A program made the translations under genes and the position numbers. The notes below the pieces were generated by a model that saw only the letters and a list, made by a program, of their open reading frames with translations, did not search any database and had not been told where the DNA came from. Source: an uncultured Alphaproteobacteria bacterium (GTDB lineage Bacteria; Pseudomonadota; Alphaproteobacteria; Rs-D84). Taken from it: DNA of 64,000 bases. Location of the stretch: the NCBI GenBank assembly GCA_951801825.1, contig CATOOF010000001.1:380132-444131 (forward strand). Direction: 5' to 3'. Positions 40,968 through 51,409 of this stretch are shown piece by piece (within the stretch, counting starts at the first letter, position 1; the number at the start of each line of letters is the position of its first letter).

Positions 40968-41057
40968 GGATGGTTGGCAGAGCGGTCGAATGCGGCGGTC
41001 TTGAAAACCGTTGAGGGTGCAAGCCCTCCGGGGGTTCGAATCCCTCACCATCCGCCA
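40968..41057 (+). tRNA. tRNA-Ser (anticodon TGA), long variable arm
   Basis: GGATGGTTGGCAGAGCGGTCGAATGC...CTTGAAAA...long extra arm...GGTTCGAATCCCTCACCATCCGCCA. Followed by a terminator hairpin at 41086-41115. Confidence 0.9.
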
Positions 41058-41653: not shown

Positions 41654-42406
41654 TCAAATATAATGTATCGTGTATATAAGCTGTGTTGGCTGTTTGACGG
41701 ACAGTATTCCTGATAGGAGAGGTTGGCGTGAAACAGACTTCATAATATTTTTTAGTAATTCTTCTTTGCCAAAAAAATTTTTAAGGGGGAATATTTGCTC
41801 ATTATTTTTTATAGCTAAGATATCTAAGTGTATCTCTGTCTCATTATCATCGCATTTTTTTAAGGTCAGTATAGTTGCATTTGTATTCAGAGTTAGGTAA
41901 TAATCAGACTTTGTTCCTAAATCCTTATTGGCAGCACAGCTCATACATACTGCAAGTAAAGCAATGATAATATTTGAATTCAACTGCATTATATTATTAG
42001 AGTCTATGCTGATAATTTGTAATGACGGATCACTAGTGCCCCCTATAATGTTGAAATTGCTAGGAATTGATTTTCCATGATGGATGTGACATCGAAATAT
42101 ATGATACACAATTTCAGCCAAATCTGGCCCAAAGCATCCACCTACAACACGTCCTTTTTCATCCGTTATTTTTATACCTGGATAAAATTTCCAAGCCTCA
42201 CATTCTGGTAATCCCATAAAAGGTTCCATAATCCAGTAATAATTGCGTAGTAAATTTATATAGTCGTATCTTGAAATATAATCTTTGTTATACCAGTTTC
42301 TAGCAGTTCCTTCTATTGCCAATGTTGCAAAGTTAAATGCGGCTGTGAAATCTTGGGTGTTATAGGCATCAAGTGAGCGTTCTATGTTTCGAATTAATTC
42401 GGTCAT
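41654..42406 (-). CDS. Hypothetical protein (250 aa), AT-rich island cargo
   Basis: Clean ORF in a ~33% GC region. No recognisable motif. Confidence 0.45.
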   Translation of the reverse strand: MTELIRNIERSLDAYNTQDFTAAFNFATLAIEGTARNWYNKDYISRYDYINLLRNYYWIMEPFMGLPECEAWKFYPGIKITDEKGRVVGGCFGPDLAEIVYHIFRCHIHHGKSIPSNFNIIGGTSDPSLQIISIDSNNIMQLNSNIIIALLAVCMSCAANKDLGTKSDYYLTLNTNATILTLKKCDDNETEIHLDILAIKNNEQIFPLKNFFGKEELLKNIMKSVSRQPLLSGILSVKQPTQLIYTIHYI

Positions 42407-43418: not shown

Positions 43419-44408
43419 ATGCCAACAACTCGACATACTTTTGTTTGTCCAATATATAATATTGATGTAGATAATGATGTTTTGGGTGTTGATTATAATG
43501 GTTATATAATTATTTCTGCATCTGAATTTCACGAAAATTATGTGTCTCAATTATATTGTGATAATATGGGATTATTGGATGATATAAAATTACCGCAGCT
43601 TGGTTCAATAGTTGACCGGCCCACGGCTCGGTATATTATAATTTCTTATATAGATTTAGAAGATGGCTATAACCAAGATGTTATATCAGCTAATAACAAA
43701 AAGATAGATGAATTCTTTTGTGGCTTTTGCTTCGTAATAATGGCATTGAGATGGTTAGCCCCTGGAAATATACAGGTAAATAATGCTTATGTTTTATCAA
43801 GCAGAAGTGCAAGAAGAAGAGATTTTGGGATTTCTACACCATTGTATGGGCTAAGTAATATGTATACTGAAGGAACCACTCTTTTGTTCCTTAATAATTA
43901 TAGAATAACAGATGTTCTTTTAAATAGAGCGATTGAGCTCGGACAGAAAATAATAGATAATTATAGTGCCATCGAATATCCAGCGGTATATTTTAATCAG
44001 TATTACCAAACATATCATTTGCAAGATAAATTAATAAAGTTAATGACTTTGCTTGAAACTAGTTTAATGGGAGATAGTCCGATTGAAAAGCAATACGCAT
44101 TAATTTGTCGTGGATGTTATTTTTTGAATAAAAATATCGGGTTAACCTTAAAATGTGCATATTCAATCAGAAGTGAATATTTACATTCTGGTGATATTAA
44201 GCAGAAAACAGGTAAAAAAATTCAACAAATTGTGAATAAGCAAAATGAATGGGAAGCTTTATTTGTTTTTATAACGGAGTATCTCGAATTTATTTCTAGA
44301 GAAGTTTTAAATAAGTTATTTTTAGAAATTCTGGCTACAGGACATAAAATAGACCAAATAGATCGCGATTTAGATGAGCAAATTTATGCCAAATTAAGTA
44401 GCTCCTAG
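43419..44408 (+). CDS. Hypothetical protein with a possible HEPN-type Rx4H motif (Abi-like)
   Basis: C-terminal segment CAYSIRSEYLHSG fits the Rx4-6H HEPN signature. AT-rich. Assignment tentative. Confidence 0.35.
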   Translation: MPTTRHTFVCPIYNIDVDNDVLGVDYNGYIIISASEFHENYVSQLYCDNMGLLDDIKLPQLGSIVDRPTARYIIISYIDLEDGYNQDVISANNKKIDEFFCGFCFVIMALRWLAPGNIQVNNAYVLSSRSARRRDFGISTPLYGLSNMYTEGTTLLFLNNYRITDVLLNRAIELGQKIIDNYSAIEYPAVYFNQYYQTYHLQDKLIKLMTLLETSLMGDSPIEKQYALICRGCYFLNKNIGLTLKCAYSIRSEYLHSGDIKQKTGKKIQQIVNKQNEWEALFVFITEYLEFISREVLNKLFLEILATGHKIDQIDRDLDEQIYAKLSSS

Positions 44409-44582: not shown

Positions 44583-45485
44583 ATGTCACATGAAATTCTG
44601 TTGAAAGATATTTTGGATGGGATAAAGGTAGATTCGTCTGCAAATCGTCGGCGCAAGCTGCGTTTCAATACTTCATGGATTGATCAGGATACAAAGATAT
44701 TCAGAGATTTCCGGTCAATGTATATGGATAATGACGAATGTTTTGTGCCATGGACTTTGTCTACTCGGTCGAATAAGCAAAAAAGACTTAGTGACATTGA
44801 CACGGTTTTTCAGTTTATTGAAATAGAACCGCATAAATGGTTGTTTGTAGGCGCATATGAAATAATTGACTTGAATTTGTCTGCGTTTGACAAAGTTATT
44901 GGTAAACCATTTGATTATGCAAATGCAAAAAGATTGGCCGAATTTGATAAGTTATCTGACAGATTAGTGGTGGAACACACTAATACACCAAAGAAATTTT
45001 TTTATACTGATCCTAATATAATTGACAATGTAAAGGTTTATACTATTTTGCCGCGACCGTATCGCGGTTCTGCAGAAGAGTTTCCAGGATATGAAAATGT
45101 ATGTAAAGATTATAAATCATTGTCGCATTGTATAAAAGACTCTGCGTGGCATGATGCCCTATGCAATGTATATGGTGTATATGTTTTGACTGATACAAAA
45201 ACTGGGAAATTATATATCGGGTCTGCAACGGGGGCGGATGGAATATATGGCCGGTGGCAAACTTATCTGAAAAGGGGATATGATGATTCTGATAAAGACT
45301 ATCCGAATAAAAAATTGAAAGAGTTGGTAAAAAAAGAAGGTATTAAATATATCCAGGATAATTTTCAATACAGCATATTAGAAATTTTCCCAAAGACAGA
45401 TATTGGATGCAATAAAGCGTTAGAACGCGAAAGTTATTGGAAAAATGTATTCAAAACGCGTATGTTTGGATATAATGATAACTAG
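44583..45485 (+). CDS. GIY-YIG nuclease domain protein with an uncharacterised ~190-aa N-terminal domain
   Basis: C-terminal GVYVLTDTKTGKLYIGSATGADGIYGRW...ALERESYW...FGYN reproduces the GIY, YIG, Arg, Glu and Asn positions. Confidence 0.65.
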   Translation: MSHEILLKDILDGIKVDSSANRRRKLRFNTSWIDQDTKIFRDFRSMYMDNDECFVPWTLSTRSNKQKRLSDIDTVFQFIEIEPHKWLFVGAYEIIDLNLSAFDKVIGKPFDYANAKRLAEFDKLSDRLVVEHTNTPKKFFYTDPNIIDNVKVYTILPRPYRGSAEEFPGYENVCKDYKSLSHCIKDSAWHDALCNVYGVYVLTDTKTGKLYIGSATGADGIYGRWQTYLKRGYDDSDKDYPNKKLKELVKKEGIKYIQDNFQYSILEIFPKTDIGCNKALERESYWKNVFKTRMFGYNDN

Positions 45486-45979: not shown

Positions 45980-46471
45980 TCAGATGTCGCCCCGGTGGCA
46001 CTGCTGGTCTTCGTCAGTCAGCGCGGGAATGGCATCCGCTTTCGGATCACTTGCTCCATCACCGTCCAGAATTAGGTCAATCTCGGCGGTCTCAAAACCG
46101 GAGATTTCCAGATTGAAATCCAGGTCCAGGTTGCTCAATTCACTGAATTCCAGATTCAACAATTCGATACTCCATTTGCCGAGTTCCGTAAGTTTGTTGT
46201 CCGCGATGCGGTACGCGCGTTTTTGTGCATCCGTCAGATGCGACAGAATAATTGCCGGCACTTCGATCATGCCGGCATCCTTGGCCGCCGCCACGCGCCC
46301 ATGCCCGGTGATGATTTCCAGATTCTCGTCCAGCAAGACCGGATTGATAAACCCGAACTCGCGGATGGATTCGCGTATTTTTGCGACTTGGACTTTGGTA
46401 TGCAGCTTCGGGTTGTTTTTGTACGCCCGAATGTCAGTTATTTTTATGTTTTGGATTTGTAAGTTGGTCAT
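45980..46471 (-). CDS. ParB-like nuclease domain protein (ParB/Srx N-terminal domain only)
   Basis: IREFGFINPVLLDENLEIITGHGRVAAAKDAG contains the ParB GxxR box. ATG 46471 has a GGAG SD; ORF-track 46582 is an upstream extension. ~50% GC inside an AT-rich island. Confidence 0.6.
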   Translation of the reverse strand: MTNLQIQNIKITDIRAYKNNPKLHTKVQVAKIRESIREFGFINPVLLDENLEIITGHGRVAAAKDAGMIEVPAIILSHLTDAQKRAYRIADNKLTELGKWSIELLNLEFSELSNLDLDFNLEISGFETAEIDLILDGDGASDPKADAIPALTDEDQQCHRGDI

Positions 46472-46687
46472 TAGACACTCCGTATAAGTTTTGTTAATCA
46501 TCACTATAAATTTTTTATAGGGGGGTATATATATGGAAAAGTGAAAGTTTACTTGAGTGTTCGCGCCACGAAACCTATACACTTTCCCTCTTATAAGGCG
46601 ATCTGAAAGTTTATGTTTTGATATATGGCTAAAAATAATGTGTTATACTTGAAAAAATGGCTGGTGTGATATATATAGAAATATACT

Positions 46688-48265
46688 ATGAGAATTAATA
46701 AGTCGGCGGGTTTAAACGAGTCAGAGCATCGTCTTGTAAAACTAGGCGAGAAGGTTTTTATGGGATTATGGAGTTATCCTAATCCCAAAATAAAAACCTC
46801 ATCAGGAACCCCGGAATTATGTGATTTGTTAGTTGTTTGTGGTAATAATGTACTAGTTTTCTCAGATAAAGATATCAAATTCAATGAGGATAAAGACTTA
46901 TTAGTGGCTTGGCGCAGATGGGAGCGGAAAGCTATATTAAAATCGATAAATCAGTTAAGACATGCCGAAAATATTATAAAAGATCATCCAGAAAAAATAT
47001 TATTGAATGATACAGATCCTTTTCCTTTGTCATTTCCTGCAAAGAGGGATTTAAAAATACGTTTAATATGTGTGGCAAATGGGGTAGCGGAAGCGTGTAA
47101 AAGATATTTTGGTAAAGGCTGTACAGGAAGTTTAAAATTTTCTAACTTAAACGGTTATACTCAGGTGTCAGATAAGGACTTGTCTAAGTTACCTGTTAAG
47201 GAAAGAGAAGAGTATAAAGAGAGTACGATATTCACTATAGCTGATTATGATTCATTAAAAACCTTTGTACATGTTTTTGATGATTATTCTTTCCCGTTTG
47301 TTTTACAGGAATTAGATACATTGACGGATTTCGTTAAATATTTGGAAGAAAAGGAGCGTTTTATAAGATCTGGGGTTGCGGTATGTTATACTGGCGAAGA
47401 GGATTTATTATACAATTATTTAAAAGAGTTTGATGAAGAACGCAATTGTCATACATTTGTAAATCCAAAAGAAACTAATGCAAATGTATTTATGTTTATG
47501 GAAGAGGATTGGAATTCATTTAAACAGTCCCAACAATATATTGCTCGTATAAAAGCTAACCAAAAAAGCTATTTCTGGGATCAGCTTGTTCAACATAATG
47601 CCCAATGTACATTGGCCGGTATTACTAAAATTTTTGCTACTGCGTCAGCAGACTGTGATATTGCTTTTCGGTATATGGCGCTAGAGGATCGATTGTCGCG
47701 CAGAGCATTTTCCGATAGAATGATAGCTGCAATCAGCAATTTCCCCGATAATTATACGCCAGACAATCACTATATGAGTGCATTTTTCTCTTTTGTGAAT
47801 GATGGATTATTGTACATATTTTTACAAATTCCCAAGGAAAACAACAGTTCTCATGGTGATTACTTAAAAGCTAGACGTGATAAAATGCAAATTTACGCCA
47901 ACTGTGCCAAAGCTAGATGTGAAATAGAGGGTAAGTTTGTAGACAAGGTTATATGTATTGCAACTGAGCCGATGAGAATTGTGAAAAATGTTGATATAGA
48001 CATAATGCTAATGGATATTAAAGAATGGAATACAGAACTACAGAACCATTGGGAATCGGCACGTCGAAACTTAAACATATTTAGAAAATCATTTAAAGAT
48101 CTGCAGCATGCAAAAGAAAAAGAATGGCCTGAGTCTCCGATTTTTGTGCAAAAACGAACTAAAAAGATAGGTCAAAATGATAAATGTCCATGTGGTAGTG
48201 GATTAAAATACAAGAAGTGCTGCGGAAGTGTTTTGAAACCCAAAAAACAAATACCTTACATATAA
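46688..48265 (+). CDS. NERD-like nuclease-related domain protein with a C-terminal SEC-C metal-binding motif
   Basis: N-terminus GEKVFMGLWS...ELCDLLVVCGNNVLVFSDKDIKF matches the NERD pattern (E...ExDhvvv...vfvxExK). The terminal CPCGSGLKYKKCCG is a SEC-C motif. Confidence 0.5.
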   Translation: MRINKSAGLNESEHRLVKLGEKVFMGLWSYPNPKIKTSSGTPELCDLLVVCGNNVLVFSDKDIKFNEDKDLLVAWRRWERKAILKSINQLRHAENIIKDHPEKILLNDTDPFPLSFPAKRDLKIRLICVANGVAEACKRYFGKGCTGSLKFSNLNGYTQVSDKDLSKLPVKEREEYKESTIFTIADYDSLKTFVHVFDDYSFPFVLQELDTLTDFVKYLEEKERFIRSGVAVCYTGEEDLLYNYLKEFDEERNCHTFVNPKETNANVFMFMEEDWNSFKQSQQYIARIKANQKSYFWDQLVQHNAQCTLAGITKIFATASADCDIAFRYMALEDRLSRRAFSDRMIAAISNFPDNYTPDNHYMSAFFSFVNDGLLYIFLQIPKENNSSHGDYLKARRDKMQIYANCAKARCEIEGKFVDKVICIATEPMRIVKNVDIDIMLMDIKEWNTELQNHWESARRNLNIFRKSFKDLQHAKEKEWPESPIFVQKRTKKIGQNDKCPCGSGLKYKKCCGSVLKPKKQIPYI

Positions 48266-48277
48266 ATAGGATGTAAG

Positions 48278-48454
48278 ATGCCGGTTTTTAATAGAAATGG
48301 AGAAGTGATAGGTGTAATTACAGAAACGCCAGATCCAGAAGGTGATTATGATAAATTTGGTTACGGGGTAGCAATTCCTATGGAATATATAGAACAGCTA
48401 GAAAATGAATATGATAGAAAAATAACTTTTATGGATGATATTAATTGTGTGTAA
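48278..48454 (+). pseudogene. Trypsin-fold protease C-terminal fragment, in frame with and separated by a single TAA from the preceding gene
   Basis: IGCKMPVFNRNGEVIGVIT...GYGVAIP parallels the GNSGGPLVNLNGEVIGINT...GIGFAIP block of HtrA/S1 proteases with Ser replaced by Cys. There is no upstream His/Asp region, so it is likely a remnant. Confidence 0.35.
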
Positions 48455-48487
48455 TTAAAATTATCTTTATAACTAATCGTTATTATA

Positions 48488-49873
48488 TTAATAAAATCCA
48501 AATTTTAATTTCCTATTCTCTATTTCTGATTGTAGCATATCAAAATTGAAATCAGAACGATTTATATTTTTATAAAATTTTAGTAAATGATAATGAAAAG
48601 AATTGTGAAATGTCTTTTTTATCATACTATCTAACAAAGTAATATAGTAATCTTCTCTGTTAAGCTCTTTCATTATTTTATATACATTAGATAGTCTAAA
48701 ATCCGGAGAATCTGCAAGAATAGTTTCATCTAGTATAGATGTAATAGTTGGTTCTAATAGTTCATTTTCAAGAAAGTTTATTCCTTTTTTCACTAATAGT
48801 GTAATTATTCGTTTTATCACTCTATCAGATCTAAATGCATATTTTTTCATTTTGTAGTCAAAGAACTCTCTAACAGCAGAATTAAAATTTTCTTTTGTGG
48901 TATCGTCGGATAAGCAACTAATAATATCAAAAGCTTGGTAAATTCTATATTCTGATGCTTTCATAATATGAACTTTACCAACATTTATATTAAGTCCAAT
49001 CTTATATAAAATTTTGGATGCTTCAAAGATATGTTTTTCTGCGGTATACTTATCGTTGCTAAATATTGCCATATCATCAGCAAAACGTATATAAGAAGAA
49101 CCGGAAGCTTGTGTTAAGTTAAATATGCGTTTGTCAAATTCTCTCAGATAAAAATTTGCAAGCTGTCTGGAACAATCGCCGACTTCGTCTTGCGGTATGC
49201 CGGTATGTCGACTAAAATATCCGTCAAAAGGTTTGTTCCAGTAATGTAAAAAGTACATTAGTAAATCAAGTTCATTGCTAAGAGTATTGGGTATTTTATG
49301 GCGCAGGCGTTTTTCTAATAAATCAACTTTTATATTGTCATAGAAGTTAGCTATATCAAATATTGCTACATAAAAATCCTCTCCGAATTTTGATTGATAA
49401 TCTAAAAATACGGAATATGCTTTTCTGGTATATTCATTCCATTCGTTCAACCATGCTCGAATATCTATTGCTGCAGCTGGAAAGTATTGGATTGTATCCA
49501 ACATAAGAAGGTCTTCAAAATTTTCTATTTCTTTAATTGGATTGCTAAATCTCCAGCCGCCAAATGTTCCTTGTGTCCTATCTTTTATGTCGCATATGTA
49601 ATCTTGGAGTTTGTTTAAACAGTAAAAATATGCACAATAGTCTGTAAATTCAAACGTTGGTACTATTCTGGCGACATTACCACCTTTGTTAAATATTATA
49701 TAGTCTCTTGGAATTGTCGGTTGATATGTATTGTTTGAGATGTCGTTATACAAATTAGATAAACCGGTTTGTATATCAATAAGAGGAAACTCTATTAGGG
49801 ATTGTTTTTTTACATGTTTTGCAAAAGGTAACATTGAAGCGATAAACTCAGACTTAGTTTCATGAATTTGCAT
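48488..49873 (-). CDS. Reverse transcriptase of the Abi/retron/DRT-like (non-intron, non-LTR) type, 461 aa
   Basis: RT motifs 1-2 (IFNKGGNVARIVP), A (VAIFDIANFYDNI), B' (GIPQDEVGDCSRQLANFYL), C (YIRFADDMAIFS), D (KIGLNINVGKVHI). ~140-aa alpha-helical C-terminal extension. No maturase or endonuclease domains. Confidence 0.75.
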   Translation of the reverse strand: MQIHETKSEFIASMLPFAKHVKKQSLIEFPLIDIQTGLSNLYNDISNNTYQPTIPRDYIIFNKGGNVARIVPTFEFTDYCAYFYCLNKLQDYICDIKDRTQGTFGGWRFSNPIKEIENFEDLLMLDTIQYFPAAAIDIRAWLNEWNEYTRKAYSVFLDYQSKFGEDFYVAIFDIANFYDNIKVDLLEKRLRHKIPNTLSNELDLLMYFLHYWNKPFDGYFSRHTGIPQDEVGDCSRQLANFYLREFDKRIFNLTQASGSSYIRFADDMAIFSNDKYTAEKHIFEASKILYKIGLNINVGKVHIMKASEYRIYQAFDIISCLSDDTTKENFNSAVREFFDYKMKKYAFRSDRVIKRIITLLVKKGINFLENELLEPTITSILDETILADSPDFRLSNVYKIMKELNREDYYITLLDSMIKKTFHNSFHYHLLKFYKNINRSDFNFDMLQSEIENRKLKFGFY

Positions 49874-50199
49874 AAATTTCCTCTTTTCTGGAATTATAAT
49901 AGGAAAGTGTTTGGTGGTCCAGAATATAGTTATACCTTGAGAGGTATATCAAAAACTTATGAAGCTGATATGTGTTGCCATAATTATGCCGGGTGTTGCG
50001 CCAATAATCATCAATAGTACCTAAATTTTCCCAGATAATACAAAATATTGCTAATTTGTGAGCCGAGATTAGCGATAAGTTTTTATGTTCGTATTCGAAA
50101 AAGTGAATAAAATCGCGTAGTTTTTCGGTTTGTATTCAAAATAATTTGATGGTTTTGCAATGATTTTTAGGTTGTCGCCAAATAATGGCAATCTATACC

Positions 50200-50390
50200 T
50201 TGGCGGGGGTGGGGCGGGGATGTTCCCTGATGTGGGCGGGTGAAATCCCTGTTCCTAATATAAAAATTCCCTGTTATTTTTGTGGGAAATTTTGTGAAAG
50301 TCCCGGAAATCGGGTGCAACGGGTGAAAACGGGGGCGCCGAGATGCCGAAAGTTCCCTGTTAATCCCTGTATTTTGTTGTATGGCGTTTG
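50200..50390 (+). repeat. Locally GC-rich array of five TCCCTGT(T) direct repeats (starts 50224, 50246, 50268, 50354, 50364; spacings 22, 22, 86, 10 nt) interleaved with three GGGTGAAA motifs
   Basis: Read directly from the sequence. The overlapping ORFs 50185..50439 (+) and 50167..50532 (-) are judged non-coding. Confidence 0.6.
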
Positions 50391-50450
50391 CCGTAGAATA
50401 TTGGTGCGCCGTCAGGAATATATTATTGAAATTGCTTAATCTTTTTACAA

Positions 50451-50485
50451 AACATCCGATGTCTGTCGGATGTTCTTTTATAGGT
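50451..50485. terminator. Bidirectional intrinsic terminator (AACATCCGA/TCGGATGTT 9-bp stem, 6-nt loop, T/A runs either side)
   Basis: Perfect inverted repeat followed by CTTTTATA on the plus strand and preceded by TTTTTACAAA. Confidence 0.65.
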
Positions 50486-50557: not shown

Positions 50558-51067
50558 GTGTTTACGCCCAACACCCCAGCTGAAAAAGCAACATTTGAAA
50601 AGCCGGTTAATACAATGCCTGGTTACTATGCGGTATTTGATGACAAGCAATTTACATTGTATGTGGATGATAAACCGGTAATATCATGGGATGCTGTATC
50701 TGGTCGTTCCGGTTACCAAAGCCCAGAATGTCAAGACCAAAAATCCACAGGGCCAATCCCAGAAGGGACGTATGTTGCAAGACAGGAAAAACTACAGTTT
50801 ATGTCTGCTACAGATTGGCTTATTGGCTGGACGACTAAAGTTACTGATAGGGGTGTTTGGCCCGGGTCTTCAATGTCTTGGGGAAGCTCGCGTGTCTGGT
50901 TAGAACCATCAAAAGAAACAAATACGTTTGGTCGAGGTGGTTTCAGTATTCATGGTGGCGAGGAGCCCGGTTCTGCTGGTTGCATTGATCTAACAAGTGA
51001 AATGCCAGGGTTTGCAGATTGGTTCAAAAAGAATGGAAAAGATTTAATTATTAAAGTAGAGTATTAA
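50558..51067 (+). CDS. DUF2778/Tlde1-like L,D-transpeptidase-fold protein (candidate peptidoglycan-targeting toxin)
   Basis: GRGGFSIHGGEEPGSAGCIDL has the His...Ser-x-Gly-Cys catalytic arrangement of YkuD/Tlde1 domains. Start uncertain (GTG 50558 or ATG 50615). Confidence 0.6.
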   Translation: MFTPNTPAEKATFEKPVNTMPGYYAVFDDKQFTLYVDDKPVISWDAVSGRSGYQSPECQDQKSTGPIPEGTYVARQEKLQFMSATDWLIGWTTKVTDRGVWPGSSMSWGSSRVWLEPSKETNTFGRGGFSIHGGEEPGSAGCIDLTSEMPGFADWFKKNGKDLIIKVEY

Positions 51068-51082
51068 AAACAAAGGCATAAA

Positions 51083-51409
51083 ATGAAAAAAATATTAAAC
51101 ATAACAAGTTATGTCGCGACAATATGTTTGTTTTGTGCCCTGTATATTTTTTTATTTGATTTGGTTTGTATCGGCAAAATTTCAAAATTTAATCATATTT
51201 GGGCAAATGCTTGTCAGTTTGATATTGAAGGCGCATATCTAACCTGTATGACAAATTATGATGTTTCGTGCATTGTGTTGTTGTTGCTCATATTATCTTT
51301 TATGTTATTGCGGCTAATAAGAGTATATAACAAACGTGTCCTGCTCGTTCCGATTTGTGGTTTTTTATTGTTTGTGTTGTCTGTTATAACATGTTGGGGG
51401 CTTGTCTAA
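51083..51409 (+). CDS. Small multi-TM membrane protein, candidate cognate immunity protein
   Basis: Three hydrophobic helices, 15 nt downstream of the Tlde1-like gene. Confidence 0.45.
   Translation: MKKILNITSYVATICLFCALYIFLFDLVCIGKISKFNHIWANACQFDIEGAYLTCMTNYDVSCIVLLLLILSFMLLRLIRVYNKRVLLVPICGFLLFVLSVITCWGLV

Follow-up and report, generated by a model that had tools for sequence, protein, structure and literature searches.

Reverse transcriptases (RTs) that travel without a recognisable partner raise the question of what they belong to and what they do for their host. Here, this question concerns a 461-amino-acid (aa) RT encoded on the minus strand of a 64,000-nucleotide (nt) stretch of DNA from an uncultured alphaproteobacterium (contig CATOOF010000001.1; the whole stretch is called the window). 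A sequence-only reading of the window had described the enzyme as an orphan of the Abi/DRT type with an unusual FADD catalytic box and no retron, group II intron or diversity-generating retroelement (DGR) around it, and had suggested that it could form a defence module with its neighbours. From profile searches, comparison of homologous loci and structure prediction, we propose instead that the RT is a single-gene anti-phage system of the UG13b group, Class 1, and we give this a probability of roughly 0.6.

The RT is assigned to the UG13b group

The open reading frame (ORF) was found exactly where the sequence-only reading had placed it, with the same strand, length and ATG start (Table 1). 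A rival gene call (P0001) gives the same RT a 421-aa product. However, homologues align with residue 1 of the 461-aa form, and the longer ORF is therefore correct. A ribosome-binding site (RBS; AGAGGA) lies 7 nt 5′ of the ATG, and further upstream the minus strand carries two sigma-70-like sequences, each matching the consensus at 10 of 12 positions, at 49952-49923 (TTGATA-18-TATATT) and 49921-49893 (TGGACC-17-TATAAT). The protein passes the cut-off of Pfam RVT_1 (E = 1.3e-12), and the five RT motifs quoted earlier are all present, three of which (motif A, the motif B variant GIPQDEVGDCSRQLANFYL and FADD) were re-checked by translation.

When the RT was compared with the PADLOC profiles, RT_UG13b (PDLC03750) was the best match at 372.8 bits (E = 6e-112), in an alignment that spans residues 16-452 of the RT and positions 13-425 of the 430 in the profile. 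The runner-up was UG21 (103 bits, E = 3e-30), followed by UG19 (E = 7e-24), UG9 (3e-23), UG13a (2e-22) and then UG23, UG34, Drt8 and AbiA. UG13b was also the top profile for every one of the 34 homologues scanned. With this end-to-end match and the agreement of its homologues, the RT has turned from an apparent orphan into a new UG13b member that shares no more than 57% identity with anything else found. By profile, then, it is classified in a named group of the UG/Abi RTs.

Mestre et al. 2022 (PMC9226505) split UG13 into UG13a and UG13b. On inspection of individual loci they predicted UG13b to be defensive, and they made no test of it. UG13 is missing from their lists for Class 2, Class 3 and the unclassified groups, which places it in Class 1 by elimination; the hallmark of that class is a C-terminal alpha-helical repeat (alphaRep, HEAT-like) domain (PMC9226505). 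UG21 and UG19, both uncharacterised Class 1 groups, match the RT over nearly its full length with profiles of 503 and 562 positions, respectively, although they score 270-290 bits below UG13b. As the next-best profiles, they are probably the nearest sister groups of UG13b. The defence prediction for UG21 was rated inconclusive by Mestre et al. (PMC9226505).

A homologue search covering 5.8 billion proteins returned 127 relatives, all about 430-470 aa long, a range that includes the 461-aa RT, and all with the RT as their only Pfam domain. The two nearest share 57% and 54% identity with the RT. Among 1.84 billion cluster representatives, searched exhaustively, only 138 clusters matched at E <= 1e-30, which shows that the UG13b family is rare. 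The RT shares its length class, single-ORF architecture and association with defence islands with the rest of the group, and sits in a small subclade, chiefly of alphaproteobacteria, in which the insertion between motifs 2 and 3 is slightly longer.

Residue conservation was counted in a 101-sequence alignment. D173 of motif A and D266 and D267 of motif C are invariant, hence the catalytic triad of the RT is intact. N176 and Y178 of motif A are also invariant, as are P227, Q228, S235, R236, N240 and F241 of the motif B variant. In motif C, the box reads YADD in 63 sequences, FADD in 26, YSDD in nine, YTDD in two and FSDD in one, i.e. position 264 is Tyr in 74 and Phe in 27. Therefore, FADD, which had been called unusual, and the motif B variant are ordinary family traits and no peculiarity of this copy. 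Y50, present in 101 of 101 sequences, and Y178 are the only invariant tyrosines, and the C-terminal Y461 is not conserved.

The predicted structure resembles compact Class 1 enzymes

An AlphaFold2 model of the RT was built on the same alignment, with a mean predicted local distance difference test score (pLDDT) of 90.5 and a predicted template-modelling score (pTM) of 0.88. Its only disordered part is the loop at residues 111-130 (111-137 if the whole Ser/Tyr-rich loop is counted). The C-terminal helical extension of ~140 aa that had been noticed in the sequence was confirmed in the model as eight helices across residues 327-453, mostly with pLDDT >90. In Foldseek searches of the PDB, the top full-length matches included DRT4/UG15 (9vdv, 9l9s and 9vdo) and DRT6 (9wy8), with template-modelling (TM) scores of 0.53-0.58, and full-length matches were also obtained with Abi-P2, AbiA and AbiK (TM 0.45-0.58 overall). 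The longest structural alignments were with DRT4 (352 aa), DRT6 (349), AbiK (322), Abi-P2 (317) and AbiA (311). All of these are Class 1 RTs bearing an alphaRep domain, which argues that the C-terminal domain of the RT is alphaRep-like. The model has a compact Class 1 fold, in which an RT core is fused to a C-terminal alpha-helical repeat domain. At 430-470 aa, UG13b proteins are among the most compact RT-plus-alphaRep enzymes.

The RT nevertheless differs from each characterised relative. DRT4 (UG15) and DRT6 (UG12) are single-gene Class 1 systems with 13-15% identity to the RT, and UG13b proteins are 30-90 residues shorter. In the NCBIfam scan there was no Drt4 match, and Drt5 reached 19 bits against a cut-off of 550. 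The RT belongs to neither the DRT4 nor the DRT6 group. The lactococcal and P2 abortive-infection polymerases AbiK, Abi-P2 and AbiA have the same Class 1 architecture at about 14% identity, and the PADLOC AbiA profile matches the RT core (E = 1.2e-17). In contrast to AbiA, the RT has no HEPN domain, its helical domain is much shorter than in any of these three proteins, and its motif B keeps PQ...SR..NFY rather than the Abi-type sequence.

The RT gene stands alone across the family

To define the neighbourhood of the family, 80 homologous UG13b loci were collected, one genome per species, and all neighbouring ORFs were clustered. The loci come from Bacteroidota, Patescibacteria, Cyanobacteria, Firmicutes, Gammaproteobacteria and a few archaeal metagenome-assembled genomes. 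No neighbour cluster was universal among them, and the most widespread occurred in 19 of the 80. The commonest neighbours were genes of Type I restriction–modification (R-M) systems, with hsdM/hsdS in 19 loci, hsdR in 17 and one or the other in 20 in total; other recurring neighbours were large serine recombinases (10 loci) and Fic genes (six loci). Intergenic gaps at the RT were short: the median was 82 nt on the upstream side and 81 nt on the downstream side. In 17 of 66 loci both gaps were <50 nt, and in 25 of 66 both were <100 nt, which leaves many UG13b members without room for a non-coding RNA (ncRNA) of the DRT2 or DRT9 style. In conclusion, neither a partner gene nor a flanking ncRNA is conserved in UG13b, and the RT is a stand-alone gene. 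Placement in a well-described clade with a known partner set would have refuted the sequence-only reading, and this applies by half: the clade has a name and a defensive prediction, yet no partner set is known for it.

A single-gene abortive-infection system is the preferred function

The most likely role of the RT is abortive infection by means of protein-primed, untemplated DNA, and the steps of the mechanism are modelled on the characterised Class 1 relatives AbiK, Abi-P2, AbiA, DRT4 and DRT6. The RT would oligomerise and prime DNA synthesis on one of its own tyrosines. Candidate primers are the invariant Tyr50 in the fingers loop 47-56, or a Tyr/Ser in the disordered loop 111-137. From there, the RT would extend single-stranded DNA (ssDNA) with no nucleic-acid template. 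In the uninfected cell, host exonucleases would hold the product low, whereas during infection a phage DNA-binding protein would stabilise it, and the resulting accumulation would stop the cell.

For protein-primed synthesis that needs no template, the precedent is AbiK, Abi-P2 and AbiA, which use a tyrosine as primer and produce long random DNA (PMC12783706; PMC13174585; PMC13213688), and Class 1 as a whole is associated with untemplated synthesis (PMC13174585). DRT4 forms hexamers that constitutively make protein-primed random ssDNA from a priming residue in the palm (Y125) and respond to the trigger ORF55; DRT6 has the same trigger and likewise makes protein-primed random ssDNA (PMC12783706). 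The priming residues of AbiK (Y44) and Abi-P2 (Y61) are in a fingers loop, and those of AbiA (Y298/Y303) in a linker (PMC12783706); that of DRT3b (Y666) is at the C-terminus. The many UG13b loci without room for an ncRNA lend circumstantial support to template-free synthesis.

Several points weigh against this proposal. Identity to the characterised Class 1 enzymes is only 13-16%, and the C-terminal domain is shorter than that of DRT4 or AbiK, with moderate TM-scores (0.5-0.58). Since priming sites vary among the known enzymes, they are not transferable by homology. The invariance of Tyr50 may be due solely to the motif 1 Tyr of template-dependent RTs, and at the Y178 site template-dependent RTs likewise bear a conserved aromatic residue in motif A. 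We infer the defence role of this copy from its context and its relatives, and the literature searched yields no experimental study of UG13b and no DRT number for it. Furthermore, DRT3b shows that a Class 1 enzyme can use protein as the template for a defined repeat and can require both a second RT and an ncRNA (PMC13174585), so that random ssDNA is not guaranteed as the product of the RT.

The behaviour of DRT3b leads to a different reading, which we regard as unlikely: UG13b enzymes would be the smallest Class 1 "DNA-writing" RTs, with an unseen product such as a DRT3b-like, protein-templated defined DNA. In that case, the family-specific acidic insertion in motif B (PQ-DE-x-GD-x-SR) could replace the template, and the position in R-M operons could make the RT a back-up that fires once restriction is inhibited. 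DRT3, DRT4, DRT7 and DRT9 each gave a different DNA product, which makes the Class 1 group UG13b a reasonable target. The AlphaFold2 model is confident, and the 1.9 kb segment that carries the RT, with its own promoter region, is precisely bounded.

Alternative explanations

Another unlikely candidate is that UG13b RTs are accessories or guards of Type I R-M systems, similar to PrrC, and that the window copy is a displaced cassette without its usual partner. In the 20 loci with hsd genes, which come from several phyla, these genes are always on the strand of the RT. The RT directly adjoins an hsd gene in 13 of them, often with overlapping stop and start codons or tiny gaps, and in seven (L035, L046, L050, L058, L060, L061 and L065) it takes the place of PrrC, between hsdS and hsdR. 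In addition, a Type I R-M system occupies the same hot spot in a related strain (L086). PrrC is an anticodon nuclease embedded in the prr hsd (Type I R-M) operon. Its likeness to the UG13b RT is restricted to gene placement, as protein and chemistry are unrelated, and unlike PrrC the window copy has no R-M system adjacent. Indeed, in three quarters of the loci, the window included, no Type I R-M gene lies within 10 kb. Unrelated defence genes commonly settle in Type I R-M operons, so that the embedding of the RT may reflect co-mobility and not coupled function. Fic genes are embedded in some of the same operons. The quarter of UG13b homologues in Type I R-M operons is a concrete hint at the deployment of these enzymes. 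R-M-embedded loci were recorded as L016, L017, L032, L033, L035, L043, L046-L048, L050, L051, L053, L058, L060, L061, L065, L073 and L080.

We consider it improbable that the RT copies an adjacent ncRNA in the way of the Class 2 systems DRT2, DRT9 and DRT10, with either the GC-rich element upstream of it (Table 1) or its 322-nt upstream region as template. Undiscovered ncRNAs are possible in other UG/Abi groups according to Mestre et al. (PMC9226505). The element lies directly upstream of the RT and divergent from it, and a diverged copy occupies the same place just upstream of the 57%-identical RT (L082:9750-9930). A 50-nt core does not vary between its five versions, and past each of them the plus strand carries a terminator-like hairpin that differs from version to version. 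However, the element is also present in relatives with no RT at the site, at 81-84% identity, which is about the level of backbone divergence. There it has other cargo beside it, which differs directly past the element end ...GCCAAGGTA. None of the 80 other UG13b loci contains the element, RNAalifold gave no covariation support on either strand, and Rfam had no match to it. The 322-nt region folds no better than shuffled sequence (z = -1.2) and has no conserved counterpart in any other UG13b locus. Short gaps on both sides of the RT and the many operons with overlapping stop and start codons also speak against a template RNA, as does the predicted fold, which is of Class 1 and not of Class 2.

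The GC island that had been noted beside the RT is thus real, with 50% GC and repeats, but it is not specific to the RT. The element is a boundary mark of the hot spot and no component of the RT system. The conserved element measures about 230 nt, within 50196-50474 of the window, and occurs in this alphaproteobacterial lineage only. In agreement, a metagenome scan with an exact 18-mer of the element gave 81 matches, of which seven were true copies, all from the same bacterial lineage, and a scan of viral contigs gave no match. The differing hairpins on the plus strand suggest that the element may be transcribed, as a leader or as a small RNA of the flank. It might serve the Tlde1-type gene downstream in either role, or else be a protein-binding or recombination site.

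Other template-dependent classes were rejected in turn, and the statement of the sequence-only reading that no retron, group II intron or DGR context is present holds in Rfam, NCBIfam and repeat searches alike. At gathering thresholds, Rfam found only three tRNAs in the window as a whole, and a scan of 48-51 kb at E <= 1 gave no match. Neither TR/VR-like direct repeats nor long inverted repeats of the a1/a2 type occur within 40-56 kb. A retron was rejected on the absence of an Rfam match and of suitable inverted repeats, and on the score of the NCBIfam St85 RT model (43 bits against a cut-off of 235). A group II intron RT was rejected because the RT/maturase model TIGR04416 remained below its cut-off (60 bits against 300) and the Rfam scans contained no group II intron RNA, and a DGR because there is no TR/VR pair. 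Drt2 scored 43 bits against a cut-off of 390 and Drt3a was also far under its cut-off; like the St85, TIGR04416 and Drt5 matches, these covered the RT core only. A Class 2 DRT (DRT2, DRT9 or DRT10) was set aside given the alphaRep-like domain and the lack of any flanking sequence conserved across loci.

It is very unlikely that the RT lacks a cellular function and is the remnant of a selfish or decaying retroelement. The low-GC, foreign character of the segment, the gene remnants that flank it and the rarity of the family would fit such an origin. However, the ORF is full-length with all catalytic and family-invariant residues, the RT is identical on 22 contigs, and no endonuclease, maturase domain or intron RNA was found in Pfam, NCBIfam and Rfam scans. 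The length of the family is conserved over many phyla, and the family is tied to defence loci.

A multi-gene module of the RT with the neighbouring SEC-C protein and/or the Tlde1-type gene is also very unlikely. In its favour, these genes are adjacent in all 22 contigs with the exact RT, and the PD-(D/E)xK nuclease fold of the SEC-C protein is one often seen in defence effectors. Against it, homologues of either gene occur in none of the 80 other UG13b loci, near-identical SEC-C genes are found on contigs without the RT (paired with a 217-aa gene 11-13 nt after), distant SEC-C relatives stand alone beside integrases or recombinases, the RT and SEC-C genes are convergent with a truncated gene remnant between them, and the Tlde1-type gene is a conserved flank in RT-less relatives. 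As the GC-rich patch is kept in RT-less relatives too, the suggested module of the RT with its neighbours is not sustained. With the case for a multi-gene module removed, the UG13b RT would work alone in its hot spot.

The RT is cargo of a defence hot spot

The window contains a low-GC island from tRNA-Ser to about 51.5 kb, with 36% GC compared with 47.6% in the core. The 3′ end of tRNA-Ser has no direct repeat anywhere else in the window, and a clean attachment-site boundary is therefore not visible. Related strains, which share about 85% nucleotide identity with the window in the core, keep the flank of the site, which consists of the genes for glycyl-tRNA synthetase (GlyRS) and an HD-domain protein and a gene of the Tlde1 or lysozyme type. 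The cargo beside the HD-domain gene, at about 11-20 kb in each locus (L084-L088), differs between the strains and comprises Fic, Type I R-M (in L086), Hachiman (HamA and a DEAD helicase), GIY-YIG Uzume-like and DUF488 genes. Such a site is a defence hot spot, in which the RT belongs to the cargo that varies between strains. Together with the UG13b match, this context bears out the earlier view of an Abi/UG/DRT-type RT among defence genes.

Table 1. Positions of the RT gene, its parts and surrounding features in the window
Feature	Position	Strand	Basis or remark
Complete UG13b RT gene	48488..49873	minus	ORF list; ATG start; 461 aa + stop codon
Probable promoter and RBS of the RT gene	49874..49960	minus	consensus matches only
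RT fingers/palm core, about residues 40-320, motifs 1-7	48914..49756	minus	
Motif A FDIANFYDN, catalytic D173 and Y178	49334..49360	minus	translation
Motif B variant GIPQDEVGDCSRQLANFYL	49145..49201	minus	translation
Motif C catalytic box FADD (F264 A265 D266 D267)	49073..49084	minus	translation
Tyr50 codon, fingers loop, candidate priming residue	49724..49726	minus	inference only
C-terminal helical (alphaRep-like) domain, about residues 321-461	48491..48913	minus	
Low-GC RT-bearing segment, about 1.9 kb	48300..50195	.	replaces 217-aa gene of RT-less contigs
58-aa chimeric remnant ORF, left junction	48278..48454	plus	recombination-junction remnant
GC-rich patch, 50% GC, five CAGGGAW repeats	50196-50420	repeats on minus	
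SEC-C protein	46688-48265	convergent with RT	SEC-C motif; PD-(D/E)xK nuclease-like fold
tRNA-Ser(TGA), left edge of island	40968-41057	plus	
DUF488 protein, 141 aa	42530-42955	minus	PADLOC candidate PDC-M45C, E = 7e-30
Uzume-like gene, 300-aa GIY-YIG protein	44583-45485	plus	PADLOC UzuA, E = 1.5e-48, full-length
ParB_N-methyltransferase remnant, 200-aa ORF	45980-46582	minus	ParB_N part only of ParB_N-N6/N4 methyltransferase
Tlde1/YkuD (L,D-transpeptidase-type toxin) protein, 169 aa	50558-51067	plus	

The segment that carries the RT could be delimited by comparison with a related contig without the RT (L089). The window is 98.9% identical to this contig up to ~48299, seven codons into the 217-aa gene, and homology restarts at 50196 with 81% identity; the junction alignments agree. 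Between these points, the GC content is 30.0%, compared with the 47.6% of the core, and the segment holds the RT, its upstream region and most of a 58-aa chimeric ORF. The exact RT has the same context on all 22 contigs. The first ~7 codons of the 58-aa ORF are the start of the 217-aa gene (L089, L091), and the rest is weakly like the C-terminal part of a DegP-type protease domain (TIGR02037, E = 0.0016). As a conserved small partner of the RT, this ORF was rejected, as it is a junction chimera and the other RT loci contain nothing homologous to it. Which event came first is uncertain: the RT segment may have inserted into the SEC-C operon, or a piece of SEC-C may have arrived next to the RT. 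Under either order, the RT and SEC-C genes are not a conserved pair.

Other features of the region

The SEC-C neighbour had been described as a NERD/SEC-C protein. Its SEC-C motif was retrieved, but a NERD domain was not: Pfam had none even at E <= 5, and none of the 284 homologues of the protein is annotated with NERD. The PD-(D/E)xK nuclease-like domain was revealed solely by the fold search.

Upstream of the RT, a 9-nt direct repeat, CAAGGTATA in the RT sense, occurs at 49931-49939 and 50194-50202. The two copies bracket a 255-nt AT-rich stretch between the GC-rich element and the promoter region of the RT. In L082, the element is about 70 nt from the RT start and this stretch is absent. 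The stretch may be a small insertion; a miniature inverted-repeat transposable element was rejected, as its sole inverted repeat is not terminal.

In the left part of the island, the 329-aa (43419-44408) and 250-aa (41654-42406) proteins next to the DUF488 protein had no family match in our scans. The 200-aa ParB_N ORF is probably the decayed remnant of a prophage-like element. L084 and L082 contain full-length ParB_N-methyltransferases of 397-439 aa with DUF5681 after them, and L084 has a terminase there as well. In some related strains, the ParB_N-methyltransferase, DUF5681 and terminase genes form a block like the end of a prophage.

On the right, the Tlde1-type gene is followed by a gene for a 108-aa hydrophobic protein, which could be the Tlde1 immunity partner (the pair spans 50558-51409 on the plus strand). 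In relatives, a Tlde1 or lysozyme domain is fused to a Phage_Mu_F domain.

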